Shown: in pieces, positions 23,791 through 62,732 of the stretch
Layout: each line of letters starts with the position of its first letter
Numbering within the stretch: position 1 is the stretch's first letter
NCBI GenBank assembly: GCA_963780535.1
Contig: CAWACS010000043.1
Span: 17,613-81,612, forward strand
Length of the DNA: 64,000 nucleotides
Reading direction: 5' to 3'
From: an uncultured Verrucomicrobiae bacterium
Lineage (GTDB): Bacteria; Verrucomicrobiota; Verrucomicrobiia; Limisphaerales; UBA11358
Made by a program: the position numbers and the translations under genes
The notes under the pieces: generated by a model
Database searches by the model: none
Seen by the model: only the letters and a program-made list of their open reading frames with translations
Told to the model about the DNA's origin: nothing

Positions 23791-25464
23791 TCAGCTGATT
23801 TGCAACCACACCGTCTTCAAATAGGCCGGTTCGGCGCGGCTGACGGGGAAATCCGGCGGCTGCGGAAAATAATGCTGCTGTAAAATTTCCCGTCGCGCGT
23901 GAAGGACGGCGGTTTCGACCTCGGCGAGAAACGCCTCCGGCGGCCAGTCGGTGGCATTGGTCGAGGCCAACAGGATTCCGCCCGGCTTTACCAGCGGCAG
24001 CGCCGCGGTCACAAGTTTTGCATAATCCTTCTCCACCCGGAACACACCGCTTTCCTTCGACTGCGAAAATGTCGGCGGATCGAGCAGCACGGTGTCGAAC
24101 CGGCGGCCCTTTTTCGCCAGCCGTCGCAGCCAGTCGAATGCATCGCCGTAAATGAACTCGTGCGCCGCTGGGTCCAGCCCGTTCACCGTGAAGTTGCGCC
24201 GGCCCCATTCGAGGTATTTCCTCGAGAGATCAAGGCTCGTCGTCCGGGCGCCCGCCCGCGCCGCACAGACGGAAAAACCGCAGGTGTAGGCGAATACGTT
24301 CAGAAGTTCGGAGTTCGGAGTTCGGAGTTCGGAGTTCGAAAAATCCGCGGCGATGTAACCGGTCAAAATTCGGCGGCGGTTGTCGCGCTGGTCCAAAAAC
24401 AAACCCATGGAATAACCTTCGTTGAAACTCAACTCAAAGCGGACGCCATTTTCCATGATCTCGAACCGCTCCGGCGCGGCCTCCCCCAGCACCCGTTGTG
24501 GCGACGCCTCCGCCGTCGTCGTGCGCCGAACCTGTTGCGACAGGATTTTGTGATACGCGCCGCGCGCGGCAAACGTTTTCAGCAGTCGCGCCAGCCCGTC
24601 GCGCTGGTCCACCCGCAACGGTTGCCCGGATTGCGAGAGCAGAAAATCGCCCAATCGCTCTACATACCATCCCGGCCAGCCGTCGCTCGCGCCGTGAATC
24701 GCGCGGAAGGCATTCGTCGCTTCCGGCTCGATCACCGCGGCCCGCAACGCGCAGGAGCCGACGTGAGGAGGCCCTGACTTTTCTGTTTTGTTTTTGAGAC
24801 TCGTCACCTCGTCTCCTGCAAAGTCAGCCGGCGCGCCAAATGTCACCGGCTTGCCGGTGGTCGGATGGGTGAAGAAAATTTCCGCCGCGTGCAGAAAGAC
24901 GCGCGACGACGTCGTGCCGCCATAGAGCGTGTCGCCGAGAACGGGAAATCCACTCTCCGCGGCGTGAACGCGGATCTGGTGCGTGCGTCCGGTAAGCGGC
25001 TCGGCCTCAATCACGTTGCAGCGGCGGTCACAGACCGCCGATACAGTAAAACGCGTTTCCGCGATTTCCGCACCCGTATGCGGCGGCCGGCTCACATACC
25101 TGTCACCGGCCCGAACCAGCGCGGTCTTGACCGTGAATTCCCCTTCTGGCACTTCGCGGTCGGTGAGCAGGAGATATTTCTTGCGGACACGCCGTTGCGT
25201 GAATTGTTCGGTCAGCGAACGGTTGGCGGCGGGGGTTTTGCCAAACACGAGCACGCCGCTCGTTTCCTTGTCCAGCCGGTGCAAAATCGCCAGCGCCGAC
25301 CAGCGCGGCTCGCGGTGGCGCAGCCAGTCGTAGATGCCCTCGCCCGCGTAGGGGCCGGGCGCATGCGTGTTCCAGCCGGCAGGCTTGTGGACCACCAGCA
25401 GATGCTCATCCTCAAAAATCACGCACGGCGCCATGCCCAGATGAAAGCATTTTCCCCCGCCCAA
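23791..25464 (-). CDS. fusion protein: RluA-family pseudouridine synthase (N-terminal) plus RlmI/RlmK-type SAM methyltransferase (C-terminal)
   Basis: N-terminus: FEDEHLLVVHKPAGWNTH and HRLDKETSGVLVFGKT (catalytic Asp motif). C-terminus: LLNVFAYTCGFSVCAARAGA (motif I) and VLLDPPTFSQSK. ATG 25434 is an alternative start. Confidence 0.75.
   Translation of the reverse strand: MGGGKCFHLGMAPCVIFEDEHLLVVHKPAGWNTHAPGPYAGEGIYDWLRHREPRWSALAILHRLDKETSGVLVFGKTPAANRSLTEQFTQRRVRKKYLLLTDREVPEGEFTVKTALVRAGDRYVSRPPHTGAEIAETRFTVSAVCDRRCNVIEAEPLTGRTHQIRVHAAESGFPVLGDTLYGGTTSSRVFLHAAEIFFTHPTTGKPVTFGAPADFAGDEVTSLKNKTEKSGPPHVGSCALRAAVIEPEATNAFRAIHGASDGWPGWYVERLGDFLLSQSGQPLRVDQRDGLARLLKTFAARGAYHKILSQQVRRTTTAEASPQRVLGEAAPERFEIMENGVRFELSFNEGYSMGLFLDQRDNRRRILTGYIAADFSNSELRTPNSELLNVFAYTCGFSVCAARAGARTTSLDLSRKYLEWGRRNFTVNGLDPAAHEFIYGDAFDWLRRLAKKGRRFDTVLLDPPTFSQSKESGVFRVEKDYAKLVTAALPLVKPGGILLASTNATDWPPEAFLAEVETAVLHARREILQQHYFPQPPDFPVSRAEPAYLKTVWLQIS
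24303..24340. repeat. 7-nt array (GGAGTTC)x5 inside the methyltransferase domain
   Basis: GAAGTTC GGAGTTC GGAGTTC GGAGTTC GGAGTTC. On the mRNA (minus) strand it reads (GAACTCC)n, translated as [11 protein letters not shown], directly before SAM motif I. Confidence 0.85.
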
Positions 25465-40286: not shown

Positions 40287-41593
40287 ACCAGCGATTTGAC
40301 GACTTCCTCGATTTTGCCGATGCCTTCACCGGCTTCCTGCGGCTTGAGGTTCAACGGCGGCAGCAGCCGCACGATTTGCGTTCCCGCTGGTATCGTCAGC
40401 ACGCCGGCCGAGTGCAGCCGGTTGACCAACTGGACCGCCGCCGTCTGGTCGCCCGAGGCGAACGCCGGAATTTTCTCCTTCTCCACCAGTTCCAGGCCGA
40501 GCATGAAACCAAATCCCCGCGCGCCCTTGAGCACCCGCGGATAACGGGCGACCAGCTGTTCCAGCCCGTGCTTCATCCAGTCGCCGAGTTGGCGCGCGTT
40601 TTCATCCAGCCGCTCGCGTTCGATGACCTCCAGGACTTTGAGCGCCACGGCGCAGGCCAGCGGCGTGCCGCCAAACGTCGTCGCGTGCGTGCCCGGCCCG
40701 AGCAGATCCGCATACGGCGCCCGCACCCAGAACGCGCCGATGGGAAATCCGCCGCCCAACGATTTGGCCATCGAAATGCCGTCGGGCCGGAAATCGGAGT
40801 CCGGAGTTCGAAGTCCGGAGTCCGGAGTTGCCGCTTCGAGAATCCTTTGGAAGCTCTGGAATCGGCCCGTCCGATAATGTCCGCACTGCACGCCATCAAG
40901 GAACAGCAGCAGCTTTTTCTCGTCGCACAACGCGCGCAGGCCCAGGAGGTATTCCGGCGTGGCAGGCGTGACGCCGCCCTCGCCCTGCACACCTTCAATG
41001 AGAATGGCGACCGTCGCGGGCGAAATCGCCGCGCGCACCGCCGCCAGATCGTTGAACGGCACGTGCCGGAAACCCGGCGTCATCGGTTCAAACCCCTTTT
41101 TAACCTTGTCCTGGCCGGTCGCCGCGATGGCGGCCAGCGTGCGCCCATGAAACGAGTTCGTCGCGGTCAGGATTTCAAACCGGCCCTCGGCGTGACCGAA
41201 TTTCCGGGCCAGTTTGAACAACCCTTCGTTGGCCTCCGCGCCGCTGTTGGCGAAGAAGCATTTGCCCGGGCCGATGCGTCGGACCAGTTCGGCGGCCAGC
41301 CGGCCCTGCGGCTCGGTGAAATACAGGTTCGAGACGTGAATCAGCTTGCGCGATTGCTCGACGAGCGCCTCGGTGATGGCCGGATGCGCGTGGCCGAGGC
41401 AGCACACAGCGATGCCGCCGCCCAGGTCGAGATAACGTTTGCCCGCAACGTCAAAAACGTAACTGCCCGCGCCGTGGCTGAGCACGAGGTCAAAACGCCC
41501 GTAGCTCGGCACGACGTTCTGGTTGAACAATTGCCGCACCGACTCGTGCTGGTTGTGCACGAGCGGCGGCGGTGAGGGAACGATTTCTTTCAT
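40283..41593 (-). CDS. argD: acetylornithine aminotransferase
   Basis: Class-III aminotransferase motifs (GGGIAVCCLGHAHP, LLFLDGVQCGHYRTG, AKSLGGGFPIGA). Start moved to ATG 41593, because the upstream ATG 41629 lies inside a repeat element. Confidence 0.85.
   Translation of the reverse strand: MKEIVPSPPPLVHNQHESVRQLFNQNVVPSYGRFDLVLSHGAGSYVFDVAGKRYLDLGGGIAVCCLGHAHPAITEALVEQSRKLIHVSNLYFTEPQGRLAAELVRRIGPGKCFFANSGAEANEGLFKLARKFGHAEGRFEILTATNSFHGRTLAAIAATGQDKVKKGFEPMTPGFRHVPFNDLAAVRAAISPATVAILIEGVQGEGGVTPATPEYLLGLRALCDEKKLLLFLDGVQCGHYRTGRFQSFQRILEAATPDSGLRTPDSDFRPDGISMAKSLGGGFPIGAFWVRAPYADLLGPGTHATTFGGTPLACAVALKVLEVIERERLDENARQLGDWMKHGLEQLVARYPRVLKGARGFGFMLGLELVEKEKIPAFASGDQTAAVQLVNRLHSAGVLTIPAGTQIVRLLPPLNLKPQEAGEGIGKIEEVVKSLV
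40807..40841. repeat. 7-nt array (GGAGTYC)x5 inside argD
   Basis: GGAGTCC GGAGTTC GAAGTCC GGAGTCC GGAGTTG. On the mRNA strand it is translated as TPDSGLRTPDSD. Confidence 0.8.
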
Positions 41594-46588: not shown

Positions 46589-48649
46589 TTAATGTTTCTG
46601 ATATCGTTGCTGCATTTCGGGGGAGAGATCCCCAAAATTGACCTTCGTCATCGCCCACCCGCCGCCCGCCGGCGTATAACTGATGATGATTCCGTCCGAC
46701 ATCACCCGTTGCACCTCCGCATTTCTGTAGATGGATCCCGTAATGGTCACAAGTGCCGGAGCCTGTCTTGTCTGTGCCAAGGGACGGGGTCGCATTGGCG
46801 CCGCGTGAAGCACCAGGGAGGTCTTGGGCATTGCCAGCGCCACCGGCCGTAGCGTCTTGATTGGCGCCGCAACCACCGGTCGGGAGGTGACAACTGGAGC
46901 CACCGCAGCATGGGCGACCACCGGAGTGGGTTTCACGGAAATGACTTTGGCCACGGCGACAGGAGCTTCAGTTGCCGTTTCGGCGGCCACGGAAGCTTTC
47001 GGAGCCGAAGCAGGAGTAACCGGAGCCGCCGCTGGCGGTTGAGCCTGCGGATGATCCAAGTCGTACATTTTTTGCTCCAAAGCCGCCCGGGCAACCGCCA
47101 TTTCTGAAGCGCTGACAGCGGGAGCGGGAGTGGCACTGTCGATGGTGGCTGTGGAAACCGATGTTTCGTTTGTAGCCGCAGGGGCAGATGACGCTTCCGC
47201 AACCGGAGCCGTCGTCGGAGTGGTTACCGCTGGAGTTTCAACTGTCGGTGCCGTGGGTGCCGTGGCTTCAGCCGAAGTGGCCGCGGCAGGAGCAACGTCG
47301 GTTGTGGCTGCGGAAACCGGTTTAGTCTCAGTCGGAACGGCGGTCACGGTATTGGTGTCAACCGATGTTTCATTCGTAGCCGCAGGGGTAGATGACGCTT
47401 CGGCAACCGGAGTTGTCGTCGGAGCGGTTGCCACCGGAGTTTCCATTGTCGGTGCCGTCGGTGCCGTGGCTTCAGCCGAAGTGGCCGCGGCAGGAGCAAC
47501 GTCGGTTGTGGCTGCGGAAACCGGTTTGGTCTCAGTCGGAACGGCGTTCACGGTATTGGTGTCAACCGATGTTTCGTTCGTAGCCGCAGGGGTAGATGAC
47601 GCTTCGGCAACCGGAGTTGTCGTCGGAGCGGTTGCCACCGGAGTTTCCATTGTCGGTGCCGCCGATGCCGTGGCTTCCGTCGAAGCGGTCGCGGCTGGAG
47701 CAACGTCGGTTGCGGCGGTGGAAACCGGTTTGGTCTCAGTCGGAACGGCAGCTACGGAATTGGTGGCAAAAGACGTTTCGTTCGTGGCTGCGGGAGCAGA
47801 CGACGCTTCGGCAACCTGAGCCGTCGTCGGAGCGGTTGCCACCGGAGTTTCCATTGTCGGTGCCGCCGATGCCGTGGCTTCCGTCGAAGCGGTCGCGGCT
47901 GGAGCAACGTCGGTTGCGGCGGTGGAAACCGGTTTGGTCTCAGCCGGAACGGAGGTCACGGTATTGGTGGCAAAAGACGTTTCGTTCGTGGCCGCGAGAG
48001 CAGACGACGCTTCGGCAACCGGAGCTGTCGTCGGAGTGGTTGCTACCGGAGCTTCAATTGTCGGTGCCGCCGGCGCCGTGGCTTCCGTCGAAGCGGTCGC
48101 GGCTGGAGCAACGTCGGTTGTGGCTGTGGAAACCGGTTTGGTCTCAGCCGGAACGGCAGCTACGGAATTGGTGGCAACAGACGTTTCGTTCGTGGCCGCG
48201 AGAGCAGACGACGCTTCGGCAACCGGAGCCGTCGTCGGAGTGGTTGCCACTGGAGCTTCAATTGTCGGTGCCGCTGGCGCCGTGGCTTCCGTCGAAGCGG
48301 TCGCCGCAGGAGCAACGTCGGCGGCGGCGGTGGAAACCGGTTTGGTCTCAGCCGGAACGGCAGCTACGGAATTGGTGGCCTCAGACGTTTCGTTTGTAGC
48401 CGCAGGGGTGGATGACGCTTCCGCGACCGGAGCCGCCGCCGCGGTGATGTTGGTCGTGGAGGATGCGGATTGCGCCGCCGCCGTTAAATTTGTATCCGTC
48501 GACGGCTGGGCCTGCGGGTGGTCGAGCTCAAATATTTTTTGCTCGAAAGCCGCGCGGGCCGCGGCCTGGTCCGGCGTATCATCCGCACGGGCAGAAAGCA
48601 TGGTCGCCGCCACAACGACGGATAAGCCAACCTGGATTCGGGTTTTCAT
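46589..48649 (-). CDS. secreted Ala/Thr/Pro/Glu-rich tandem-repeat protein with SH3-like C-terminal domain
   Basis: Signal peptide MKTRIQVGLSVVVAATMLSA at ATG 48649. Six full copies and one partial copy of a 68-aa unit. C-terminus ...GSIYRNAEVQRVMSDGIIISYTPAGGGWAMTKVNFGDLSPEMQQRY. Confidence 0.75.
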   Translation of the reverse strand: MKTRIQVGLSVVVAATMLSARADDTPDQAAARAAFEQKIFELDHPQAQPSTDTNLTAAAQSASSTTNITAAAAPVAEASSTPAATNETSEATNSVAAVPAETKPVSTAAADVAPAATASTEATAPAAPTIEAPVATTPTTAPVAEASSALAATNETSVATNSVAAVPAETKPVSTATTDVAPAATASTEATAPAAPTIEAPVATTPTTAPVAEASSALAATNETSFATNTVTSVPAETKPVSTAATDVAPAATASTEATASAAPTMETPVATAPTTAQVAEASSAPAATNETSFATNSVAAVPTETKPVSTAATDVAPAATASTEATASAAPTMETPVATAPTTTPVAEASSTPAATNETSVDTNTVNAVPTETKPVSAATTDVAPAAATSAEATAPTAPTMETPVATAPTTTPVAEASSTPAATNETSVDTNTVTAVPTETKPVSAATTDVAPAAATSAEATAPTAPTVETPAVTTPTTAPVAEASSAPAATNETSVSTATIDSATPAPAVSASEMAVARAALEQKMYDLDHPQAQPPAAAPVTPASAPKASVAAETATEAPVAVAKVISVKPTPVVAHAAVAPVVTSRPVVAAPIKTLRPVALAMPKTSLVLHAAPMRPRPLAQTRQAPALVTITGSIYRNAEVQRVMSDGIIISYTPAGGGWAMTKVNFGDLSPEMQQRYQKH
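47156..48433. repeat. 204-nt tandem repeat, about 6.3 copies (coding)
   Basis: The period is seen directly: near-identical out-of-frame track ORFs start at 47392 and 47596 (204 nt apart). The protein unit is APVAEASSxxAATNETSxxTNxVxxVPxETKPVSxAxTDVAPAAxxSxEATAxxAPTxExPVATxPTT. Confidence 0.85.
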
Positions 48650-48865
48650 AAATTTTCCTGTCTTCACCGGCCCTTGCGAGCATCTCCGGGGCCAATCTGG
48701 TTGGTCGCCGGTGCAAAGCGCATTTTTCCTCCAGCGAACGGTTTCCGGGGATGTCCGGGGATGATAGGAAATTCCATCTTCATGGAAAATTCCCGTTTGA
48801 ATCACAATATTGGTGAATGTCCAAATATTTGACGGGCTGGTATAAGTCGTGAAGACTGGAGATTA

Positions 48866-51250
48866 ATGGCAACCGACCCGATTTGCGGCATGACGGTGAA
48901 CGAAACGTCCGCCTTGCGCACCGAACGGGACGGGCAGACGTATTATTTTTGCTGCGAACATTGCCGGCAAAAGTTCTCGGAAATTCCGAACTCCGAACTC
49001 CGAACTCCGAACTCCGGCCATGGCCACGGGCATCACGGCGAGGCGGCGGCAAAGCCGGCCTCAAACACGCGGTATTTTTGTCCGATGTGTCCCGGTGTGG
49101 AATCGGACCGGACGGGCGATTGCCCGAAGTGCGGGATGCCGTTGGAACCCAAAACCGTGTCCGCCGAACCGGAGGACGACGGCGAAACCCGCACGCTGGC
49201 CCGCAAATTCCGGATCGGCCTGGCGCTGACCATTCCCGTCGTGTTTCTGGCAATGGGCCAATGGATTCCCGGCGTGCCAATCGACCGGTGGATTTCCAGG
49301 CCGGTTTCCCATTGGCTGGAATTGTTGTTGAGCACGCCGGTGGTGGTGTGGACGGGCGGGATCTTTTTTGGCCGGGCGTGGCGGTCGTTGAAGACGCGCC
49401 AGTTGAACATGTTTACCCTCATCGCGACCGGCGTCGGTGCGGCGTACGTTTACAGTGTCGTGGCCGTCGTCGCTCCCGGCATTTTCCCGCCATCGTTCCG
49501 GCAGCACGGCGTGGGACTTTATTTTGAGGCGGCCGCGGTCATCACCGTGCTGGTGTTGCTGGGACAGATGCTCGAAGCCAAAGCACGCCGCCGCACCGGA
49601 CAGGCCATCCAGGCGCTGCTCGGTCTGGCAGCCAAAACCGCGCACCGCGTCCGGGACGGCCACGAACTGGATGTGCCGGTGGAGGAATTGCAAAAAGGCG
49701 ACGTGCTGCGCATCCGGCCCGGCGAAAAGATTCCCCTCGACGGTGTGATGATCGAAGGCCACAGCAACGTGGACGAATCCATGATCACCGGTGAACCGAT
49801 GCCGGTCACCAAAGGCGTGCATGACGCGGTCGTCGGCGCGACCGTAAATCAAACGGGAACGTTTCTGATGCGCGCGGAGAAGGTCGGCTCGGAAACCCTG
49901 CTGGCGCAGATCGTGCAAATGGTGGTGGAAGCCCAGCGCAGCCGCGCGCCCATCCAGAAACTGGCGGACAGCGTGGCGGGCTATTTTGTGCCGACCGTCA
50001 TCGGCGCCGCCATCATCACCTTCGTGGTCTGGGCCGTTTGGGGACCGGCGCCGGCCATGGCCTGCGCGCTGGTCAATGCGGTGTCGGTGCTCATCATTGC
50101 CTGTCCGTGCGCGCTGGGTCTGGCGACGCCGATGTCCATCATGGTCGGCGTGGGCCGCGGCGCGCAGTCGGGCATTCTCATCCGAAACGCGGAAGCGATT
50201 GAAACGACGGAAAAGGTCACGCACCTGCTGACCGACAAGACCGGAACATTGACCGCCGGAAAACCGAAGGTGGTGAGCACCGTTTCGTCCCGTAGCAGCC
50301 GACGTGAGTCGGCTCAAACTGAAGGTTTTATAGAGGGTCAGAGCCGACTGACGTTGGCTGCTACAGATTTTAAAGAAGACACGCAACTGCTCGGCCTGGC
50401 TGCGTCGGTCGAGCAACTGAGTGAACATCCGCTGGCCCGGGCGATTGTGGACGAGGCAAAGGAAAGGAGAATCGCCCTGTCGCCGGTGAATGATTTTGAA
50501 TCCATAACCGGCGGCGGCGTGTCGGGAAAGATCGGCGACCGGACAGTCCGCGTGGGCAAGGAGAAATTTCTAAGTGAATTCGGCGTGATGATTCCCGACG
50601 ACTTGAAACAGGCATCGCAGCAACTTCAGGAAAAGGCGCAGACGGTGGTCTGGGTGGCGGTGGATGGCAGGGCGGTTGGCATCATCGGCATTGCCGATCC
50701 CATCAAGGAAACGACGCCCGCTGCCATCCGGGCGCTGCATGACATGGGACTGAAGGTCATCATGTGCACCGGCGACAATCGCAAGACCGCCGAGGCGGTG
50801 GCAAAGGAACTGGGCATTGACGAAGTCCGGGCGGAGTTGTCGCCGCAGGGTAAACATAAGCTGGTGAAGAAACTGAAAGCCGAGGGCAAGATTGTGGCGA
50901 TGGCCGGCGATGGCATCAACGACGCGCCCGCTCTGGCCGAGGCGCACGTGGGCATTGCGATGGGGACCGGAACGGACGTGGCCATCCAAAGTGCCGGCAT
51001 CACGCTGGTGAAAGGCGACCTGCAGGGCATCATCAAGGCGCTGTCCCTCAGCCGGGGCGTGATGAAGAACATCCGGCAGAATTTATTTTTCGCGTTTGTC
51101 TATAACGCACTGGGCGTGCCGATTGCGGCGGGAATTTTATATCCGGTGGCCCACCTGCTGCTCAATCCAATGATTGCCGGCGCCGCGATGAGTTGCAGCT
51201 CGCTCTCGGTCGTCAGCAACGCGCTGCGCCTGCGCAAGTTGAAATTGTAA
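48866..51250 (+). CDS. copA: copper-translocating P1B-type ATPase with N-terminal TRASH/YHS and CxxC-x-CxxC metal-binding modules
   Basis: DPICGMTV...[17 protein letters not shown]...[15 protein letters not shown] ([13 protein letters not shown]), DKTGTLT and GDGINDAP. Confidence 0.9.
48980..49017. repeat. 7-nt array (CGAACTC)x5 inside copA
   Basis: GAAATTC CGAACTC CGAACTC CGAACTC CGAACTC CGG, translated as [13 protein letters not shown], in the linker between the two metal-binding modules. Confidence 0.85.
50292..50364. repeat. GCAGCCGACGT-type palindromic element inside copA
   Basis: GTAGCAGCCGACGTGAGTCGGCTC-loop-GAGCCGACTGACGTTGGCTGCTAC, translated as [24 protein letters not shown]. It lies about 20 codons after DKTGTLT. 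Confidence 0.8.
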
Positions 51251-52479: not shown

Positions 52480-52965
52480 ATGCGGTCATTCGAAGGTCAT
52501 TGGTCCCGCTTTTTCCTCCGGTCAGTCGCGCTGGCCGTGCTCATGCTTTGGTGCGGCTGCCAGACGACGACCCAAAATCTGTTCACGGCCACCGGCCCCG
52601 GCTGGCACATCCAACAAGGCCAGGCGCTCTGGCGGCCCAAACAAGGCCTGCCGGAATTCGGCGGCGACCTCATATTGGCCACCAACGCGGACGGCTGGGC
52701 GCTGATTCAATTCGACAAGACGCCGCTGTCCATGGTGTTCGCACAGACCACTCCCACCCGTTGGTTCATCCAGTTTCCCCAGCAGCAGTATCATTTCTCC
52801 GGGCACGGGCTGGCACCCACCCGGTTTGCCTGGCTTTATCTGCCCGCGGCCCTGGCCGGGAAACCGCTGCCCCTGACATTGCGTTTTGAGCGCCGACCGC
52901 AGGGTGGCTGGCGGCTGGAAAACACCGGCACGGGAGAAACCCTGGAAGGTTTCCTGTCACCGTGA
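52480..52965 (+). CDS. small exported protein or lipoprotein, first gene of the lipid cluster
   Basis: Signal-like N-terminus FFLRSVALAVLMLWCGC. 161 aa. It occupies the position of the small lipoprotein (DUF3261-type) in aryl-polyene-type clusters; that equivalence is an inference only. Confidence 0.5.
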   Translation: MRSFEGHWSRFFLRSVALAVLMLWCGCQTTTQNLFTATGPGWHIQQGQALWRPKQGLPEFGGDLILATNADGWALIQFDKTPLSMVFAQTTPTRWFIQFPQQQYHFSGHGLAPTRFAWLYLPAALAGKPLPLTLRFERRPQGGWRLENTGTGETLEGFLSP

Positions 52966-52998
52966 GAGGTTTCCGCAAAAAAATTCAAACCCGCACCC

Positions 52999-53068
52999 GG
53001 AACGCCGAGCACCGTCTCGGCGCAATGGAAAATCAACATCCTCACGCCGAGGCGGTGCCCGGCGTTCC
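52999..53068. repeat. GGARCGCCGAGCACCGTCTCGGC-type palindromic element (intergenic)
   Basis: GGAACGCCGAGCACCGTCTCGGC-loop-GCCGAGGCGGTGCCCGGCGTTCC. A second copy lies at 58825. Confidence 0.8.
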
Positions 53069-53086
53069 AATTTTACAAAAGTCACC

Positions 53087-56000
53087 GTGAGTTCCTTCCT
53101 GAAACGCTGGTGGTGGGCGCTGCTCCTCGTGGCCATCGGCCTCGGCGCCGGCCGGCTCCGCTTCGACGTGGACATTCTCAACCTGTTGCCGCCGGACGAG
53201 CCGACGGTCCAGGGCCTGAAACTTTACCAGGAGCATTTTGCCAACGCCCGCGAACTGATCATCACCCTCCGCGCACCGGATGCCGGGCAGGCGGAACGGT
53301 TGGCGGGCGAATTGGCCGACCGTTTGCGGCAGCAAACCAATCTGGTCTCGGAAGTAACCTGGCAGGCGCCGTGGATGGAACATCCGGAGCAACTGGGCGA
53401 ACTGCTCGGCTGGCTCTGGTTCAATCAATCCCCGGAGTCGTTTGCGGCACTGACCAACCGGCTCGCCCCGGACCAGCTCAAACCCACACTGGAGCAGACC
53501 AAGGAAGCGCTCGCCACGTCCATGTCGCCGATGGACCTGGCCCGGCATGAGTTTGATCCGTTCGATTTGTTGACGATGCCGGGGCTGACCAATCTCGCGG
53601 GTTTTTCAGGCGGGCAAAGCCAGCAGATGTTCGCCTCGCCGGACGGGAAATTCCGATTGTTGTACGTGGAATCCGCCGTGGATCTGGGCAGTTACCGTTC
53701 CTGTGAGAGCTGGTTGAAAGCGATTCATGCAATCGTCGGAGCGCCGGCATCCCTGCCGGCGACTGGGGGAACCAACGCGAGTGAAACACGCCGGAAAGAT
53801 CAGCCTTCGTCGGACTACGGCGCGACAGGTGCCGGCGCTCCCGGGACGAACGGCATCGTGGTCCGTTACACCGGGCGACCGGTGTTTGTGGAGGAAATCG
53901 CGACGAGCATGCAACACGACATGAGCCATTCGGTGGGCATCACTTCCACCGTCATTGCGCTGCTCTTCTGGCTGACGCATCGGCGCTGGCGTCCGATGCT
54001 GTGGTTGCTGGCGCTGCTCATGTTGATTTTGGGCGCGACGCTCGCGCTGGGCGGGCTGGTGCTGGGCACCATCAGCGTGGTGGCGCTGGGTTTCGCCGCC
54101 GTGTTGCTGGGTTTGGCGGTGGATTATGCCGTGGTGCATTATCAGGAGGCGCTCGCGCACCCGCAAATGACGGTGCCGGAAATCCGCCGCGCGATTGCGC
54201 CGAGCATTTTATGGGCGGCCATCACCACGATGAGCGCGTTTCTGGTGCTGAACCTGGGCGGGTTGCCCGGCCTGGGACAACTCGGCACGCTGGTGGCCAT
54301 CGGCATCGCCCTGTCAGCCCTGGTGATGGTGATGATTTATCTGCCGCCGCTGTTTCCCGACCGCCGGAAACCGCGTCCCGACCAGCCGCCATTCCGCTGG
54401 TGGAATTATTTCGTCGCGCCGCTACCGGGAGCGCCGGCATCCGTGCCGGCGAGTTCGGCGCTAAATGCAGGGTCTCGCCGGCAAGATCAGCCTTCGTCAG
54501 ACTACGGCGCGACAGGTGCCGGCGCTCCCGGCAATAACATCGCTTTCCCGCTCCTGTTGACCGGTTTGATTCCGCTCGTGGCGTGCGCGGTGTTATGTTT
54601 CCGCCAGCCGGGATTGGACCGGACCGGCAACGCCCTGCAACCGCAACACGGGGAGGCGCAGACCACCTTGGACGAAATCACGTCGGAACTGGGTCTGCCG
54701 CCGCAACCGCTTTGGGTCATCATTACCGGAAAGGATGAACCGGAAGTTTATCAACGTCTTACCAAGGCCGACGGGTTGTTGGACGGCGCGGTTTCAAATC
54801 ATGTCATCGGCCAGTATTTGCTGCCGACCGCGCTGTGGCCGCGCGTTGAATATCAGGCAGCCAACCGGACGGCGGCGGCGGCTCTGGGAACGAAAGGACC
54901 GTTGCTGCGGGACGCCGCGCTGGGCGATGGTTTCAACACCAACGCGCTCGTGTTGACGGAGGAATTGGTAAACACGTGGGCCAGCGCCGGCGCCGACACA
55001 AATGTCTTCTGGCCGACCAATCATCTCAGTCAATGGCTCTTGAAACGGTTCATCACCCGAAGTCCCAACGAATGGCTGGTAATGGGTCTGGTTTATCCCG
55101 CGACCAATCGGGTCGAGCCGGCGGCGCTGACCGGCTTGTCCACGCATCTGGCCCGGAACGGCGCGTTGCTGTCCAGTTGGGAATTATTGGGAGGCGCAAC
55201 CCTGAAGCGGGTGCAGTCAAGAATGGGGGAAGTGGTGACGCCGATGGTGGTGCTGGTGTTGCTTTCGCTCTGGTTCGCCTTTCACCGGGCAACGGAAATT
55301 CTGTTGGGCGTGGCGGTGTTGTGCCTGAGCGGACTGTGCCTGCTGGCCATCATGGCGGTGAGCGGCTGGACCTGGAACCTGATGAACCTGATGGCCCTGC
55401 CGTTGATGCTCGGCACGGGCGTGGACTACACCCTGTTCATCCAACTGGCGTTGCGCCGGCATGGCGGCGATCTCGGCGCGGTCCGGCGTTCCGTTGGCCG
55501 GGCGCTGATGTTGTGCGGCGGCACGGCCGTGGCCGGGTTTGGGTCTTTGGGATTTTCCAGCAATCCCGGCATGGCCAGCCTGGGCAAGGTGTGCGCGGTC
55601 GGCATTGGCGCCAATATGCTCATCTCCGTGTTTTTGCTTCCCACGTGGTGGCAGTTATTAAGGCCAAAGGCTAAAGGCCAAAGGCTAAAGGCTGAAGTTA
55701 AAGGCACGAAGTCAGCAAGCGGGGAGAGGGAATCCATCATCCATCATCCATCATCCATCAACGCGTTTTCTTTGTATCGCGCCGGTTTGTGGCGGCTGGG
55801 ACTCGTCGTCGTCCGAATCCTGCCGGTCGGGTTGGTAAAAGGGTTCGCCATGATCGTGGCCGGGTTTTATTGGCGGTGCCAACGACAACGCTGCGAAGTG
55901 GTGGTGCAAAATTTCCTGCCTCTCTTTGCGGGCGACCGGGCGGCCGCCGCAAAGGCCGCGCATCGGCTTCACCGGAAGTTCGCCGCGAAGATGGTGGATT

Positions 56001-56638
56001 TATGGCGCGTCGAAAGCGGGGTGCCGGTGCAAAACTGGCTGACCAACCTGGACGAACTGGACATCATCCGTGCCGCCCGGCAACGCGGACGCGGCACGCT
56101 GTTCATCACGCTGCACCTCGGCAATTGGGAGCATGGCGGCCTGTTGCTGACGCAACTGGGCATCCGGCTGACGATCCTGACGATGGCCGAACCTGACGAC
56201 GGCCTGACCGACCTGCGCATCGAGGCGCGGCGGCGTTGCGGGGTCGAGACGCTGGTCATCGGCCAGGACGATTTCGCTTTTGTGGAGGTCATCAAACAGC
56301 TTCAAGCCGGGGCCGACCTGGCCATATCGCTGGACCGGCCGCCGGAAAAGGGCGGTGTCCCGATAGAGTTTTTCGGTCACCCATTCGAGGCGTCGCTGGC
56401 GGCGGCGGAGCTGGCGCGGGCCTCCGGCTGCGCGTTGATCGGCGTGACCATTGTCCGCCGGCCGGACGGCTACGCCGTGAAAGTGCTGCCGGAGTTCACC
56501 TACGACCGCCAGGCGCTGGGGAATCGCGAGGCCCGCCGGGAATTGACCCAGCAAATCCTGCGTGCATTCGAGCCGGAAATTCGCAAGGATATTGATCAAT
56601 GGTATCAATTCACTCCCATCTGGCCGAAGGACGGGTAA
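53087..56638 (+). CDS. MMPL/RND-type lipid exporter, reading through without a stop into an LpxL/HtrB-type acyltransferase
   Basis: GTG 53087 gives SSFLKRWWWALLLVAIGLGAG. Two six-helix bundles separated by soluble loops are typical of predicted MMPL exporters. No stop codon occurs before 56638. Contains two in-frame palindromic inserts and a repeat-built linker. Confidence 0.7.
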   Translation: MSSFLKRWWWALLLVAIGLGAGRLRFDVDILNLLPPDEPTVQGLKLYQEHFANARELIITLRAPDAGQAERLAGELADRLRQQTNLVSEVTWQAPWMEHPEQLGELLGWLWFNQSPESFAALTNRLAPDQLKPTLEQTKEALATSMSPMDLARHEFDPFDLLTMPGLTNLAGFSGGQSQQMFASPDGKFRLLYVESAVDLGSYRSCESWLKAIHAIVGAPASLPATGGTNASETRRKDQPSSDYGATGAGAPGTNGIVVRYTGRPVFVEEIATSMQHDMSHSVGITSTVIALLFWLTHRRWRPMLWLLALLMLILGATLALGGLVLGTISVVALGFAAVLLGLAVDYAVVHYQEALAHPQMTVPEIRRAIAPSILWAAITTMSAFLVLNLGGLPGLGQLGTLVAIGIALSALVMVMIYLPPLFPDRRKPRPDQPPFRWWNYFVAPLPGAPASVPASSALNAGSRRQDQPSSDYGATGAGAPGNNIAFPLLLTGLIPLVACAVLCFRQPGLDRTGNALQPQHGEAQTTLDEITSELGLPPQPLWVIITGKDEPEVYQRLTKADGLLDGAVSNHVIGQYLLPTALWPRVEYQAANRTAAAALGTKGPLLRDAALGDGFNTNALVLTEELVNTWASAGADTNVFWPTNHLSQWLLKRFITRSPNEWLVMGLVYPATNRVEPAALTGLSTHLARNGALLSSWELLGGATLKRVQSRMGEVVTPMVVLVLLSLWFAFHRATEILLGVAVLCLSGLCLLAIMAVSGWTWNLMNLMALPLMLGTGVDYTLFIQLALRRHGGDLGAVRRSVGRALMLCGGTAVAGFGSLGFSSNPGMASLGKVCAVGIGANMLISVFLLPTWWQLLRPKAKGQRLKAEVKGTKSASGERESIIHHPSSINAFSLYRAGLWRLGLVVVRILPVGLVKGFAMIVAGFYWRCQRQRCEVVVQNFLPLFAGDRAAAAKAAHRLHRKFAAKMVDLWRVESGVPVQNWLTNLDELDIIRAARQRGRGTLFITLHLGNWEHGGLLLTQLGIRLTILTMAEPDDGLTDLRIEARRRCGVETLVIGQDDFAFVEVIKQLQAGADLAISLDRPPEKGGVPIEFFGHPFEASLAAAELARASGCALIGVTIVRRPDGYAVKVLPEFTYDRQALGNREARRELTQQILRAFEPEIRKDIDQWYQFTPIWPKDG
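53747..53853. repeat. GGAGCGCCGGCA...TGCCGGCGCTCC palindromic element, copy 1 (in frame in the exporter)
   Basis: Terminal inverted repeats at 53747-53758 and 53839-53850. Translated as GAPASLPATGGTNASETRRKDQPSSDYGATGAGAPG. Confidence 0.85.
54425..54531. repeat. GGAGCGCCGGCA...TGCCGGCGCTCC palindromic element, copy 2 (in frame in the exporter)
   Basis: Same termini and the internal AAGATCAGCCTTCGTCrGACTACGGCGCGACAGG as copy 1. Translated as GAPASVPASSALNAGSRRQDQPSSDYGATGAGAPG. Confidence 0.85.
55660..55761. repeat. 7-nt arrays (AAGGCYA)n and (CATCCAT)n forming the exporter-acyltransferase linker
   Basis: AAGGCCA AAGGCTA AAGGCCA AAGGCTA AAGGCTG AAGTTAA ... aatCCATCATCCATCATCCATCATCCATCaac, translated as RPKAKGQRLKAEVKG...ESIIHHPSSINA. 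Confidence 0.85.
55772..56638 (+). other. LpxL/HtrB-type lipid A biosynthesis acyltransferase module (possible independent TTG start)
   Basis: HLGNWE catalytic motif (FITLHLGNWEHGG). N-terminal anchor YRAGLWRLGLVVVRILP. In-frame TTG at 55772. Confidence 0.7.
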
Positions 56639-56661: not shown

Positions 56662-56758
56662 TTTCTTAATCTTAATCGCAATCTTAATCCTAATCTTTCC
56701 CGACAGCCTGAGGTCGAGATGAAGATTAGGAGTAAGATTATGATTAAGAGGAAGATTT
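56662..56758. repeat. inverted hexamer/heptamer arrays (CTTAAT / AAGATT) bracketing the LolA-like start
   Basis: Left arm TTCTTAATCTTAATCGCAATCTTAATCCTAATCTT. Right arm AAGATTAGGAGTAAGATTATGATTAAGAGGAAGATT. The loop carries GAGGT and ATG 56719. Confidence 0.8.
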
Positions 56759-57426
56759 CGGTCCTCGCTGGTTGCAGCATGGTTGCGTTTTGCGCGGTGG
56801 CGGCTGTCGCCCAGGAGGCCGGCTCCAACGCGCAATTCAACCGCTGGTTCGAGGTGCAGACCAACCTGCACAGCTGGTCCGCCGACTTCACCCAGACGCG
56901 CACGCTCAAGGTATTGAATCAGCCGCTGGTGTCCACCGGCAAGGTCTGGGTCACGCCGGGTGAGTTCCGTTGGGAGTTGGGCCAGCCGGTGCAGACCATC
57001 GTGCTCCGCCAGCCGGACCAGTTGCTCATCATCTATCCCCGGCTCAAACAGGCGGAAAAATATCCGCTCGGCGCCGTTCCGACCGGACCGATCAAGGACG
57101 CGCTGGCCCTGCTGGACGCCACCCTGCCCCGCGACCGGGCAACCATGGAAAAGAACTTCAGCCTGCTGTCGGCCATGGAAACGAACGCGATGCTGCAAAT
57201 GACGCTCCAGCCCCGGAGCGATTCCGCGCGCAAATTTATCAGTGAAATTCTAATCGGTTTTCACACCAACGATTTCACCATCGCCGCCACCGAGATGAAA
57301 TTCGCCGACGGCTCCAGTCTCCGGAACGATTTCACCAACGTGGTCTTGAACCAGCCGATTGATCCCGCACGATTCGAGGCCAGACTGCCGCCGGATTTTA
57401 CCGTGGTTGAACCGCTAAAGCAATGA
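56719..57426 (+). CDS. LolA-like outer-membrane lipoprotein carrier family protein
   Basis: Signal peptide ISVLAGCSMVAFCAVAAVAQEA. FTQTRTLKVLNQPLVSTGKVWVTPGEFRWEL and IIYPRLKQAE are typical of the LolA fold family. ATG 56740 is an alternative start. Confidence 0.75.
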   Translation: MKIRSKIMIKRKISVLAGCSMVAFCAVAAVAQEAGSNAQFNRWFEVQTNLHSWSADFTQTRTLKVLNQPLVSTGKVWVTPGEFRWELGQPVQTIVLRQPDQLLIIYPRLKQAEKYPLGAVPTGPIKDALALLDATLPRDRATMEKNFSLLSAMETNAMLQMTLQPRSDSARKFISEILIGFHTNDFTIAATEMKFADGSSLRNDFTNVVLNQPIDPARFEARLPPDFTVVEPLKQ

Positions 57427-57445: not shown

Positions 57446-57514
57446 CCGGGAGCGCCGGCATTCTTGCCGGCAAGTTTCCGACACGGCGGGCCGGCAAGAT
57501 GCCGGCGCTCCCGG
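57446..57514. repeat. GGAGCGCCGGCA...TGCCGGCGCTCC palindromic element, short intergenic copy
   Basis: CCGGGAGCGCCGGCATTCTTGCCGGC-loop-GCCGGCAAGATGCCGGCGCTCCCGG. Near-perfect hairpin ending 10 nt before the next start codon. Confidence 0.85.
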
Positions 57515-57523
57515 ATTAAAACC

Positions 57524-58006
57524 ATGAGCGCGTCGCCTGACATTTTGGAACTGGCCATGAAATCGCTGCCGCACGGGCCGGAATTCCGGTTCGTGGACCG
57601 GATGGTGAGCCTGACGCCCGGCAAGCACGGCGTGGGGGAATATCGCGTGCGCGGCGATGAGTTTTATCTGCGCGGCCATCTGCCGGGCGAACCGATTTTG
57701 CCCGGGGTGCTGCTCGTGGAGGCCGGCGCCCAGGTGGCCGGCATGGTGGCGCAGGAAGACCCGGCCAATCCCACCTGGCCGCGAATGAAACTGTCCGCGC
57801 TGCGCGCCGTCAAAATTCTCGGCTCGGCCAAACCCGGCGATACCCTGCGCATCGAGGCCACCATCACCGGCCAACTGGGTTCCTTGATTCAGGCGGCGGT
57901 GTCCGCCTTCATCGCGGACACCAAGGTGCTGTCCGCGGAACTCACCCTGGCGGGCATGGGCAAGGCTGGTGAACCGGCGGAGGAGCCTGCCCGCTCTGCG
58001 GCATGA
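57524..58006 (+). CDS. FabZ/ApeI-like hot-dog beta-hydroxyacyl-ACP dehydratase
   Basis: LPHGPEFRFVDRM and FYLRGHLPGEPILPGVLLVEAGAQ (catalytic His region). Confidence 0.8.
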   Translation: MSASPDILELAMKSLPHGPEFRFVDRMVSLTPGKHGVGEYRVRGDEFYLRGHLPGEPILPGVLLVEAGAQVAGMVAQEDPANPTWPRMKLSALRAVKILGSAKPGDTLRIEATITGQLGSLIQAAVSAFIADTKVLSAELTLAGMGKAGEPAEEPARSAA

Positions 58007-59985: not shown

Positions 59986-61323
59986 ATGCCTGACCTGCCC
60001 CGTCAGATTCGATTTGCTGCCGGAGATTACTTCATGCACGCCCAGGATCGCCGGATGCGGCGGAGTGGACTGCCCGGCAATGTCTGCTGCGCGGTGATGC
60101 ACCTGGACCGGGGATTTGATGCCGGCCGGCTGCGCCGGCGGCTGGGTGAATCTCCCATCATGGATTGGCTGGCCCGGGCGCACATGGCCCGGACGTTGCC
60201 GGTGTTGCCTCCGGTCTGGCGGACGGCGGCGGAACCCAAGCCGATTTTTTTCGAGCACCGCGATCAGAATGGCGGCGGTGAAACGCCATGGTCGCCGCCC
60301 GCGGCGGTCACGGAGCGCGCATTGCGCGCCGAGGAGGGGCCGGGTCTGGCGTTTGACGTGGTGCCCCACGCGGATGGCACGAGCCATTTGTTTCTTTCGT
60401 GGAACCACACCCTGCTGGATTCACAGGGCCTGGATCTCCTCTTGCATCATTTGAACGCGGGCGGCGAGACAAACGGAGCGCCCGCGGTGGGGGATTTTAT
60501 CAGCCCCAAACAAAATCAAAAGTGGACCCCGGCCGGCTGGTGGGAGAACGCGAAACTGGCCTACACGGCGAGGCCGTGGCTGGTGGAATCCGGCAAGGAA
60601 CCGCTTTTCACCCCCGCGCCGCCCGAACCCCGTTCCGGCACGCGGGAAAACCATCGCCGCCGGATTGTGTTCACCGAGGCGGAAACCGCCCGCATTGACG
60701 CGCGCAGCCAGCAAATCACCGCCGGTTTCCGTCGCAGCCACTTTTATCTGGCGGCTTCGGTCCGCGCCTTGCATGCCATCGCCCTCCAGCGCGGCAACCA
60801 GGACGGGGCGTATCTGGTTCCCGTGCCTCACGACACGCGCCGGCACGGCGCGAAAGGCCCCATCTTTTCCAATCACCTCTCGATTCTGTTCTATCGCATC
60901 GAGCCGCGGCAGGCCGGACGGATCCGCGACATTGTCGGCGAACTCAGCCGGCAGATGACGGACCAGATTCGCGACCGCTTCCCCCAAGCCTGCATGGCGG
61001 CGCTGGATTTGTTCAAACCGTTGCCGCCGGGATATTACGTGCATCATCTGGGAAAACCGACCCGCGGCAAGATGGCCTCGTTGAGCTTTTCGGACTCGGG
61101 CGAAATCTGTCCCGGCATGACGGAATGGTGCGGTGGCCGGATTTTGGATGTCACCCACCTGATCCCCTGCTGGCGGTCACCCGGCCTGACGACGTTGTTT
61201 TTGAGGTATGGCAACCGGCTTTCCCTGATGCTGTCGTGGGTGGATGACTGCCTGAACCCGGCCGACCTGGACCAACTGGAAGGGGACATGCGCCGGGCTT
61301 TACTGGAGGAGGACCTGTCATGA
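59986..61323 (+). CDS. condensation-domain-like (HxxxD) acyltransferase
   Basis: 445 aa from ATG 59986. FLSWNHTLLDSQG carries the HxxxD(x)G-type catalytic motif of the condensation / WS-DGAT / PapA5-type superfamily. Confidence 0.55.
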   Translation: MPDLPRQIRFAAGDYFMHAQDRRMRRSGLPGNVCCAVMHLDRGFDAGRLRRRLGESPIMDWLARAHMARTLPVLPPVWRTAAEPKPIFFEHRDQNGGGETPWSPPAAVTERALRAEEGPGLAFDVVPHADGTSHLFLSWNHTLLDSQGLDLLLHHLNAGGETNGAPAVGDFISPKQNQKWTPAGWWENAKLAYTARPWLVESGKEPLFTPAPPEPRSGTRENHRRRIVFTEAETARIDARSQQITAGFRRSHFYLAASVRALHAIALQRGNQDGAYLVPVPHDTRRHGAKGPIFSNHLSILFYRIEPRQAGRIRDIVGELSRQMTDQIRDRFPQACMAALDLFKPLPPGYYVHHLGKPTRGKMASLSFSDSGEICPGMTEWCGGRILDVTHLIPCWRSPGLTTLFLRYGNRLSLMLSWVDDCLNPADLDQLEGDMRRALLEEDLS

Positions 61324-62732
61324 AGTTGCTGCTGGTGGCGACGAACCGCGAGCGCTCGCCCTATCCCGTGGCCCCGTTGGGAGCGCTGTGCGCCGCGGCC
61401 GCCGCCCGGACCGCCGGTCATGAGGTGACGTTTTTGGATCTGGGACCGGTGCGGACACCGCAACGCGCACTGCGAAAGGCAATCGCGTCGGACAAATTTC
61501 AGGCCGTTGCCTTTGGCATCCGCAATCTGGACAACTGCTGGTCGTTTGCGCCGCGTTCCTATTTCGGCGAGGTGCGGGATCTGGCGGAAACAGTGCGGCA
61601 GCATTTTGACGGGCCGTTGATTCTGGGCGGCAGCGGTTTTTCGGTGTCCCCGCAGGGTTGGATGCGGCGGCTGCGGCCTGACGGCGGTGTTGTCGGCGAA
61701 GGGGAACGGGCCTTCCCGGAAGTGTTGGCGCGGTTGGAAACCGGGCGTTCCCTGGAGGGTATTGAAGGCGTCATCACCCCGGGCAAAGGAGATGGCTCCG
61801 ACAGCGTCCTGCCCGCGAAAGCCATCGAGCGGCTGGGTGAATTGCCGCCGCCCGCCCACGACTTGTGCCGTTACCAGCCGTATGTCCGGCGCGGCGGATT
61901 TGTTGGCGTGCAAACCAAACGCGGATGTCCGTTCAAATGCGCTTACTGCATTTATCCCCAATTGGAAGGGCGGCGTTACCGGCTGCGTCCGCCAGAAGCC
62001 TTGGTTCAGGAAATTGAAACCGTGTTCACCCGGTCGAAGCTGCGGCATTTCTTTTTCGTGGACAGCGTCTTCAACGATCCCCGGAGTCACGCGCTGGCGA
62101 TCTGCCGCCAACTCGGCCGCCGGCGGTTGCCGGTCCGCTGGTCGGCCTTCTGCAATCCGACCGGGTTTGACGCGGAACTGGCGCACGCCATGAAGGAAGG
62201 CGGTTGCAACGGAGTGGAGTTCGGACTGGATGTGGCCTCGGACAAGATGCTGGCGGCCCTGGACAAGCCGTTCGGACAGAAGGAAACACGGATTGCCATG
62301 CAAGCGGCGCACGACGCCGGCCTGCCCATCGCGGTCTACCTGTTGTTCGGCGGTCCCGGTGAAACCTGGGCGGATGTCCGGGATACCCAGAATTTTTTGG
62401 ATGATTGCGCGCGGGCGAACGCCGTGTTTGCCACCATTGGCATCCGCGTTTACGAAGGCACGCCCCTGGCCCGGACGGCGGTGCGGGAAGGCCAGGTGAA
62501 GCCGGACCAGGACCTTTTCGAGCCGGCCTATTATCTTTCACCCGGGCTGGCGGAGGATACGGAGAACCGGCTCGATGCCATTGCGCGGCGGCGCGCGGAA
62601 TGGACCTCGCCGGTGGACTGGCGCCGGCCGGTGACGCGCCTGGGACAGAAGGTGACGGTTTTTCTGAACGTGCGGCCACAGTGGAAACACCTCCGCAGTT
62701 ACGGTGAGCACATGAGACCGCAAGCACCGTGA
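61320..62732 (+). CDS. B12-binding-domain radical SAM protein
   Basis: ATGA overlap with the previous gene. N-terminal Rossmann-like KLLLVATNRERSPYPVAPLG...GHEVTFLDL. CxxxCxxC cluster (RGCPFKCAYCIYP). Confidence 0.85.
   Translation: MKLLLVATNRERSPYPVAPLGALCAAAAARTAGHEVTFLDLGPVRTPQRALRKAIASDKFQAVAFGIRNLDNCWSFAPRSYFGEVRDLAETVRQHFDGPLILGGSGFSVSPQGWMRRLRPDGGVVGEGERAFPEVLARLETGRSLEGIEGVITPGKGDGSDSVLPAKAIERLGELPPPAHDLCRYQPYVRRGGFVGVQTKRGCPFKCAYCIYPQLEGRRYRLRPPEALVQEIETVFTRSKLRHFFFVDSVFNDPRSHALAICRQLGRRRLPVRWSAFCNPTGFDAELAHAMKEGGCNGVEFGLDVASDKMLAALDKPFGQKETRIAMQAAHDAGLPIAVYLLFGGPGETWADVRDTQNFLDDCARANAVFATIGIRVYEGTPLARTAVREGQVKPDQDLFEPAYYLSPGLAEDTENRLDAIARRRAEWTSPVDWRRPVTRLGQKVTVFLNVRPQWKHLRSYGEHMRPQAP

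Follow-up and report, generated by a model that had tools for sequence, protein, structure and literature searches.

The closest described relatives of the gene considered here are MMPL exporters of the HpnN and ApeM types (aryl-polyene, flexirubin) and acyltransferases of the LPLAT family, namely PatA (PDB 5f2t), LpxL/LpxM, and the ApeD-type enzymes. The gene lies in a 64,000-nucleotide (nt) stretch of DNA from an uncultured Verrucomicrobiae bacterium (contig CAWACS010000043.1, evidently from a metagenome-assembled genome, or MAG), which we call the window and whose positions give all coordinates below, except where a locus is named. With the HpnN and ApeM types it has the MMPL domain in common, and HpnN is its best match both among solved structures and in NCBIfam. 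With PatA, LpxL/LpxM, and the ApeD-type enzymes it shares PF03279, the HX4E motif (here HLGNWE), a domain of about 290 amino acids (aa), and N-terminal hydrophobic helices. Unlike HpnN and ApeM, the exporter reaches only 137 bits where the HpnN cut-off is 752, and its C-terminus is fused to the acyltransferase; unlike the described acyltransferases, the second domain misses all of the equivalog cut-offs and is tethered to an exporter instead of standing alone. The neighborhood is similar to that of the Ape and flexirubin export modules, with a LolA-like carrier and an ApeI-like dehydratase. Unlike in the Ape and flexirubin clusters, no ketosynthase genes were seen adjoining, and there is instead a B12-binding radical S-adenosylmethionine (SAM) enzyme that resembles TIGR04072.

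The tether between the two domains is made of tandem 7-nt units. According to PMC4679880 and PMC4692102, heptamers are the most over-represented class of long simple sequence repeats (LSSRs) in many bacteria (Mrazek et al., 2007), and they are described there as mostly intergenic, under-represented in coding regions, and little studied. Published heptamer LSSRs include the short tandemly repeated repetitive (STRR) sequences of cyanobacteria, the TAACTGA repeats of Beggiatoaceae, and the GGGNATC repeats of Xanthomonas and Nostoc. The arrays that we describe share with these their head-to-tail 7-nt units, a preference for period 7 over neighboring periods, a typical length of about four units, a copy number that varies among relatives, and the fact that they are a property of the lineage and not of one locus. 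In contrast to the published LSSRs, which are mainly intergenic and have one dominant unit per genome, we found 29 distinct units in 47 arrays, and the arrays in the window lie in open reading frames (ORFs), are translated as linker or loop peptides with a 7-aa period, and change in steps of 21 nt. We found no papers on heptanucleotide repeats in Verrucomicrobia.

We conclude, with high confidence, that the window encodes a genuine and old exporter-acyltransferase fusion, and that its disordered linker consists of in-frame heptanucleotide microsatellites under purifying selection. The parts of the gene are as follows (pLDDT is the predicted local distance difference test of the AlphaFold model, which was built on 26 sequences):

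53087 to 56638, plus strand: fused MMPL exporter/LPLAT acyltransferase gene (1183 aa and a stop, or 1184 codons; 100% identical to cluster P0001; mean pLDDT 81)
53087 to 55651, plus strand: MMPL/RND exporter part (HpnN-like, HAE3-type; Pfam PF03176), ending in ...LLPTWW
55652 to 55771, plus strand: 40-codon linker, QLLRPKAKGQRLKAEVKGTKSASGERESIIHHPSSINAFS, predicted to be disordered (pLDDT <50 at aa 862-892), with the junction peptides AEVKGTK, SASGER, and ESIIHHPSSINAFSLYR
55660 to 55705, plus strand: array 1, reading AAGGCCA AAGGCTA AAGGCCA AAGGCTA AAGGCTG and then degenerate units, or (AAGGCYA)~5
55679 to 55681, plus strand: in-frame CAA codon, which a T at 55679 would turn into TAA
55732 to 55760, plus strand: array 2, ATCCATC x4.1 (100% match in Tandem Repeats Finder), encoding IIHHPSSI
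55772 to 56635, plus strand: lipid-A-type (LPLAT) acyltransferase part (Pfam PF03279)
about 56114 to 56131, plus strand: HX4E motif HLGNWE of the acyltransferase part

The initial annotation had placed both domains in one ORF of 1184 codons with no stop between them. This holds by direct reading of the sequence, by translation, and by the Pfam domains, which lie in the same frame. A single frame is open from 52886 to 56638, and the public gene call starts at GTG 53087. The exporter part matches PF03176 in two stretches at 66.5 bits (cut-off 20.5), which places it in the MMPL/RND family. Judged by sequence similarity, it is HpnN-like in fold class only and not an HpnN ortholog: the HpnN equivalog models give 137 bits vs 751.85 and 87 vs 1100 (NCBIfam TIGR03480 and NF052374), all of its NCBIfam HpnN and HAE3 matches fall under their cut-offs, and the nearest solved structures are HpnN (5khn, the closest) and 6wu0. 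The acyltransferase part matches PF03279 (Lip_A_acyltrans) at 69.5 bits (cut-off 22.3) over aa 972-1246 of the 1250-aa ORF, and residues H1010, G1012, N1013, W1014, and E1015 are invariant in 26 of 26 sequences (34-100% identity). It thus has both the profile and the HX4(D/E) motif of the lipid A acyltransferases. It does not reach the equivalog level for LpxL, LpxM, or PatA (the best is PatA with 85.6 bits vs 209, and the LpxL models are far under their cut-offs); PatA and LpxM are its solved relatives. Both domains are well folded in the AlphaFold model, and pLDDT falls below 50 in four segments only (aa 169-176, 222-254, 444-484, and 862-892). Three of these four are repeat-derived, namely the heptamer linker (862-892) and two inserts of a dispersed repeat (222-254 and 444-484, described below), and for each of the repeat-derived stretches the model predicts disordered filler that separates well-folded parts.

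The fused architecture is widespread. A search of 5.8 billion proteins gave 1569 matches, and among the best 120 of these (clusters numbered from P0001, 72-100% identity), 119 have both Pfam domains and a length of 1103-1207 aa. The sole exception among the 120, P0094 (983 aa), is a truncated match that breaks off within the acyltransferase part, and several of these homologs have been named [quoted passage not shown] by JGI. An exhaustive HMMER scan over representatives at 50% identity, which gives a lower bound, found the fusion (1060-1148 aa) in no fewer than 25 additional clusters, with identities as low as 37%, and it also found MMPL-only relatives of about 780-840 aa. We also scanned one genome per species and obtained 80 loci (L-numbers below; 37-89% identity), nearly all of them labeled Verrucomicrobiota, Verrucomicrobiae, Limisphaerales, or Pedosphaera and coming from peat, soil, and lakes. 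A single ORF is present in 74 of the 80 genomes, all of them Verrucomicrobiota where reliably named. In the other six (L039, L066, L074, L076, L083, and L084), the two domains are encoded by separate genes in different frames. The junctions between these genes are overlapping stop/start sequences, typically ATGGCTGA and TGATG, and one locus has a 1.4-kb insertion. This is the pattern of a "Rosetta stone" pair (fused in 74 genomes vs separate adjacent genes in 6), and on this sequence comparison the exporter and the acyltransferase are partners, fused in most genomes but not in all. The unfused loci, with their overlapping stop/start junctions, show that the functional partnership also exists where there is no fusion. 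Thus, the possibility of a genuine fusion, which the initial annotation had left open, is borne out (74 of 80 genomes, 119 of the 120 listed clusters, and down to 37% identity). This settles how the gene should be annotated: the 1183-aa protein is real and is to be kept whole.

The comparison of orthologous loci that had been suggested as a check also shows that the repeats are absent from the linkers of distant relatives. Linker length among relatives ranges from 13 to 79 aa, and in fused relatives below about 57% identity the linkers are 13-28 aa long and have no repeat structure (for example, "RFDAVSRRKSRLYG" and "KFFLGNKKTKSAAEKISGPSQFYG"). So, the fusion predates the arrays, and the repeats did not create it.

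In the window, the linker was described at the outset as being made of 7-nt tandem arrays, and Tandem Repeats Finder recovered both of them. Array 1 is reported with period 7 and the consensus AAGGCTA, or equally well as a 14-nt unit, AAGGCCAAAGGCTA, repeated 2.4 times with 100% match. Neither pattern occurs anywhere else in the window, and shuffled sequences are expected to give 0.03-0.04 matches. Both arrays qualify as LSSRs, with at least three head-to-tail 7-nt units, above chance and above other periods, and both are polymorphic in copy number between related genomes. As 7 is not a multiple of 3, three units encode seven residues: KAKGQRL corresponds to (AAGGCYA)3 and IIHHPSS to (ATCCATC)3. 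The linker peptides across the 120 listed homologs are likewise recognizable as translations of 7-nt arrays, including KSKVQSP from (AAGTCCA)3, STVHSPQ from (GTCCACA)3, KSEVRSQ from (AAGTCAG)3, FKVQSSK from (GTTCAAA)3, LNPQPST from (CTCAACC)3, and VTRHPSP from (GTCACCC)3.

To see how the arrays evolve, we aligned the linker DNA of seven close loci. Both arrays are at orthologous positions in all seven, and the units of any one genome have been homogenized, to GGCYA in the window and in L001, to GTCCA in L002, L008, and L059, and to GTTCA in L007 and L011. The alignment has only two indels, each of exactly 21 nt, or three units: in array 1, the window and L001 have 21 nt more than the other five loci (L002, L007, L008, L011, and L059), and array 2 has one ATCCATC in L001 vs four in the window and the others. 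Linker lengths also form series that are spaced by 7 aa (33/40/47, 36/43/50, and 22/29). The arrays are, by this alignment, orthologous and evolving in concert, and the 21-nt steps together with the 7-aa series are the signature of microsatellite turnover that is filtered by the need to maintain the reading frame. The same filter explains the tendency of arrays within ORFs toward about four units (one plus three). Most of the linkers with heptamer arrays belong to the clade of at least 60% identity, and elsewhere such arrays are sporadic, as in L037, with (CCCTCGA)4, and L060, with (AGTCCAA)4. In a separate observation, the linkers of the distant relatives L035, L043, and L052 (at about 6300-6500 of those loci) have in-frame peptides of the kind typical for dispersed GC-rich repeats and not heptamers (ETGRVGDRRSG; LTPALSRREREERSP...LPLPAGEGLGEGE), which suggests that the tether is a general landing site for repeat DNA.

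Array 1 also includes a variant unit at the one place where a stop codon would arise. The unit AAGGCTA contains TAA across the unit junction, so that, in a perfect array, each frame meets a stop every 21 nt. The perfect part of array 1 has a single unit in the dangerous register, and this unit reads AAGGCCA. The initial annotation had stated that a strict (AAGGCTA)n array would produce an in-frame TAA at 55679-55681, where the actual codon is CAA, and replacing the array in silico confirmed this: strict (AAGGCTA)5 in place of array 1 leads to a stop at residue 865. Nothing but the C at 55679 stands in the way of the in-frame TAA. As the same C is found at this position in L001, it is inherited and is not a coincidence of one genome. 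Similar patching recurs at other arrays, with GACCTCC at about 9371-9377 giving CGA where GACCTCT would give an in-frame TGA, and with GTGTCGG replacing GTGACAA in L005, which avoids TGA. Given a real ORF, the stop-avoiding C is the footprint to be expected from purifying selection and no sign of a special device. The locus is a clean natural example of non-triplet microsatellites that persist in coding sequence, and they do so by three-unit steps, by homogenization of units, and by patching of the one unit in three that would make a stop.

Period-7 arrays are a lineage-wide habit (Limisphaerales/Pedosphaera-type). Among perfect arrays with at least three copies in the window, four have period 7 and none has another period from 4 to 15 (shuffles, 0). 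Among near-perfect arrays, six have period 7, one has period 9, and none has another period from 4 to 21 (shuffles, 0). The density of period-7 arrays falls as loci become less similar to the window, from 0.16 per kb at 80% identity or more to 0.10 at 60-79% and about 0.02 below 60%. Only 5 arrays with periods of 8-14 were seen in about 870 kb of fetched loci. The 47 period-7 arrays from the window and the loci are 3-5.4 units long, none with six or more. As they comprise 29 distinct units, we rejected a single mobile heptamer element as their source; so many units in such short arrays suggest a general slippage bias at period 7 and argue against hypermutable contingency tracts. All of the period-7 arrays in the window sit within long ORFs with domain support. 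Besides those in the linker, they include:

18581 to 18608, 19355 to 19391, and 19897 to 19927: three arrays in Mfd/TRCF, one of them within the CarD_TRCF_RID stretch (longer by 17 aa than its profile)
24303 to 24340: array in a minus-strand ORF for a pseudouridine synthase and SAM-methyltransferase
40795 to 40828: array in a class-III aminotransferase
48982 to 49017: array in a P-type ATPase, between the YHS and HMBD domains

Three of the sites listed here share the unit GTTCGGA or its complement. L001 has an identical ATPase array, with no change in copy number.

We propose that an HpnN-like MMPL/RND inner-membrane lipid exporter is joined by a disordered, probably cytoplasmic tether to an LPLAT acyltransferase. 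The acyltransferase would attach the acyl chain borne by the acyl carrier protein (ACP) of the cluster to a lipid acceptor at the inner leaflet, and the fused exporter would take the acylated product and pass it to the LolA-like carrier. The tether is almost without sequence constraint, and the two heptanucleotide arrays have grown inside it, presumably by slipped-strand mispairing. As the downstream domain must be kept in frame, only net changes of three units (21 nt, 7 aa) and stop-free versions survive, and this filter explains the 7-aa-periodic peptides, the 21-nt indels, and the C at 55679. Several points weigh against this account. The mutational mechanism is inferred from the patterns of the arrays. 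The role assigned to the cluster draws on weak family matches, all of them under equivalog cut-offs. The order of events (fusion first, arrays later, and fission as a secondary event) is a parsimony argument, as relatives were ordered by identity and not by phylogeny. Finally, the evidence for the fused protein is indirect, coming from its sequence and a predicted structure.

The linker could instead be a phase-variable switch, in which array 1 slips by one unit and so toggles between the fused protein and an exporter-only protein, which would uncouple the two activities in part of the population. It is true that, in silico, any change of +1, −1, or −2 units in array 1 cuts the protein off at residue 864, after the complete MMPL part and a 9-aa tail, because both of the other frames carry stops inside array 1; also, both the fused and the unfused states occur in nature. 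This nevertheless seems very unlikely because contingency loci have long, highly mutable tracts, typically of more than 6-8 units, and both in-frame and out-of-frame alleles within populations, whereas all 47 of the arrays are short (the largest has 5.4 units) and no array-bearing locus has an out-of-frame linker. Also, array 1 and the ATPase array are stable in copy number and sequence between genomes that are about 89% identical in protein, and the unfused loci are split by ordinary overlapping stop/start junctions, not by array slips. Another suggestion, made in the initial annotation, was that repeats had overwritten an intergenic region and that the stop was lost. If this merger were recent, the ORF might be non-functional or might be read as two proteins, the second from the in-frame TTG at 55772, and the unfused state in six related genomes would fit with it. 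We consider this highly improbable, and it is largely refuted already: relatives at 37-57% identity have the fusion with a repeat-free linker, the model gives each domain a good fold, and the HX4E motif is invariant. The TTG is not conserved as a start: close relatives have TTC (Phe) or TGG (Trp) at this codon, and most homologs have Phe there. No Shine-Dalgarno-like purine run lies upstream of the TTG. Nor does the linker contain a promoter-like site or an RNA structure (−34.9 kcal/mol, z = +0.82, with 161 of 200 shuffles folding at least as well), and the one terminator-like match (55847-55860) is downstream of the linker and not above shuffles. (A hairpin between arrays 1 and 2 was considered and rejected, as the fold is no better than that of shuffles and no inverted repeat joins the arrays. 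There was no Rfam match at gathering thresholds anywhere in the window.) As short tandem repeats are prone to errors in assembly and the source is a MAG contig, the collapse or expansion of a repeat might also have made a false open frame. Such an artifact is extremely unlikely: the arrays are at most 46 nt, far under read length, the identical linker peptide is found in independent assemblies from other samples (P0002 and P0006), L001 has the same arrays with point differences, and the frame is kept in 74 independent genomes.

For the in-frame microsatellites of an old fusion, known processes suffice, and no new mechanism is needed. We consider it unlikely that a lineage-specific mutational process writes expansions of 3 x 7 nt into the low-constraint parts of genes, with array 1 as a built-in "fuse." If this were true, housekeeping and envelope proteins would gain disordered spacers with a 7-aa period, leader regions would gain hairpins made from inverted arrays, and a slip of one unit or a C-to-T change at 55679 would release an exporter-only protein, which would amount to a heritable switch between coupled and uncoupled acylation and export.

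The exporter part of the gene has acquired repeat DNA of another kind, a dispersed palindromic repeat of about 110 nt that resembles miniature inverted-repeat transposable elements (MITEs) or repetitive extragenic palindromes (REPs) and that we mapped by blastn:

53738 to 53851, plus strand: copy 1, in frame, in a loop of the exporter (pLDDT <50 at aa 222-254)
54428 to 54538, plus strand: copy 2, in frame (pLDDT <50 at aa 444-484)

The repeat has an internal inverted repeat and encodes ...DQPSSDYGATGAGAPG... Both inserts are absent from many orthologs; in P0013, for example, 26 aa stand in place of the 58 aa of the window, with a repeated "GAP" on either side of the insertion. Elsewhere, there is an intergenic copy in L002 (7336-7431), and there are partial copies on the reverse strand in L007, L010, L059, and L032. 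In other orthologs, the same loop or the linker holds in-frame palindromic inserts that differ from this repeat (RQRLGVRQPSAAF...APEDWRSPKPGG; PRKGAWPPRGFTP). Rickettsia palindromic elements (RPEs) are selfish repeats that are inserted in frame in protein genes. The likeness to RPEs lies in the two in-frame palindromic copies of about 110 nt in surface loops, which are absent from many orthologs and are predicted to be disordered. However, the sequence family and the phylum differ from those of RPEs, and the linker arrays are microsatellites, not copies of a mobile element.

The fused gene belongs to a conserved cluster with a likely role in lipid biosynthesis and export, which includes these genes downstream of it:

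56740 to 57426, plus strand: LolA-like periplasmic carrier gene (Pfam LolA, NCBIfam LolA2_flexi-like), open from 56599 and with its likely start at ATG 56740
57464 to 58006, plus strand: FabZ/ApeI-like dehydratase gene (PF22818 ApeI-like matches in orthologs, taken from precomputed data)
61320 to 62732, plus strand: B12-binding radical SAM gene (Pfam; TIGR04072, "lipid biosynthesis B12-binding/radical SAM protein," 343 bits vs a cut-off of 360)

The LolA-like gene, whose product has a signal peptide (...LAGC), is a neighbor of the fused gene in all of the loci examined. Other conserved neighbors are a DUF8321/8322 protein, an ACP, a flavin adenine dinucleotide (FAD) oxidoreductase, and acyl-AMP ligases. 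Four functions like those of ApeD (acyltransferase), ApeM (MMPL exporter), ApeL (LolA-like carrier), and ApeI (dehydratase) are adjacent and syntenic in every locus examined; the LolA2_flexi match has 62 bits vs a cut-off of 125. By analogy, these genes would form a module that acylates, exports, and carries a lipid and that resembles the ApeD/ApeM/ApeL logic of the aryl-polyene and flexirubin clusters. As the fusion physically links the acyltransferase to the exporter in a widespread verrucomicrobial lipid cluster, it is a clue to substrate channeling directed toward the outer membrane.

Between the stop of the fused gene and the start of the LolA-like gene (56664-56757), there are two hexanucleotide arrays, (TCTTAA)~5.7 and (AGATTA)~6.8, which are reverse complements of each other. 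They are predicted to form a long hairpin (−43.2 kcal/mol, z = −4.8, with 0 of 200 shuffles folding as well), and its 3' arm takes in both the GGAG and the ATG of the LolA-like gene. In related loci, this site is occupied by period-7 arrays, including an inverted pair in L032 (7288-7312 and 7368-7392). This predicted hairpin may be a translational control or a stabilizing element.

Three other ORFs in the window bear mention. The minus-strand ORF at 23791-25464, which includes the array at 24303, has a PseudoU_synth_2 domain (aa 21-169) and a Methyltrans_SAM domain (aa 315-540) and may be a fusion of RNA-modification enzymes. A second merged ORF (7832-10186, plus strand) joins an O-antigen-ligase-like Wzy_C domain, without a stop, to a prepilin-type N-terminal methylation motif. 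The spacer of this ORF is built from arrays (9340-9392) in which (TCAGAAG)3 precedes a roughly inverted (GACCTCT)3, and it has CGA, not TGA, at the would-be stop. About 35 of its 120 listed homologs carry both domains (700-850 aa), and the rest have Wzy_C only. Finally, the minus-strand ORF at 46589-48805 (738 aa, with no Pfam match) contains a 204-nt unit that is repeated 6.3 times with 91% identity at 47151-48435 and that corresponds to a protein repeat of 68 aa.

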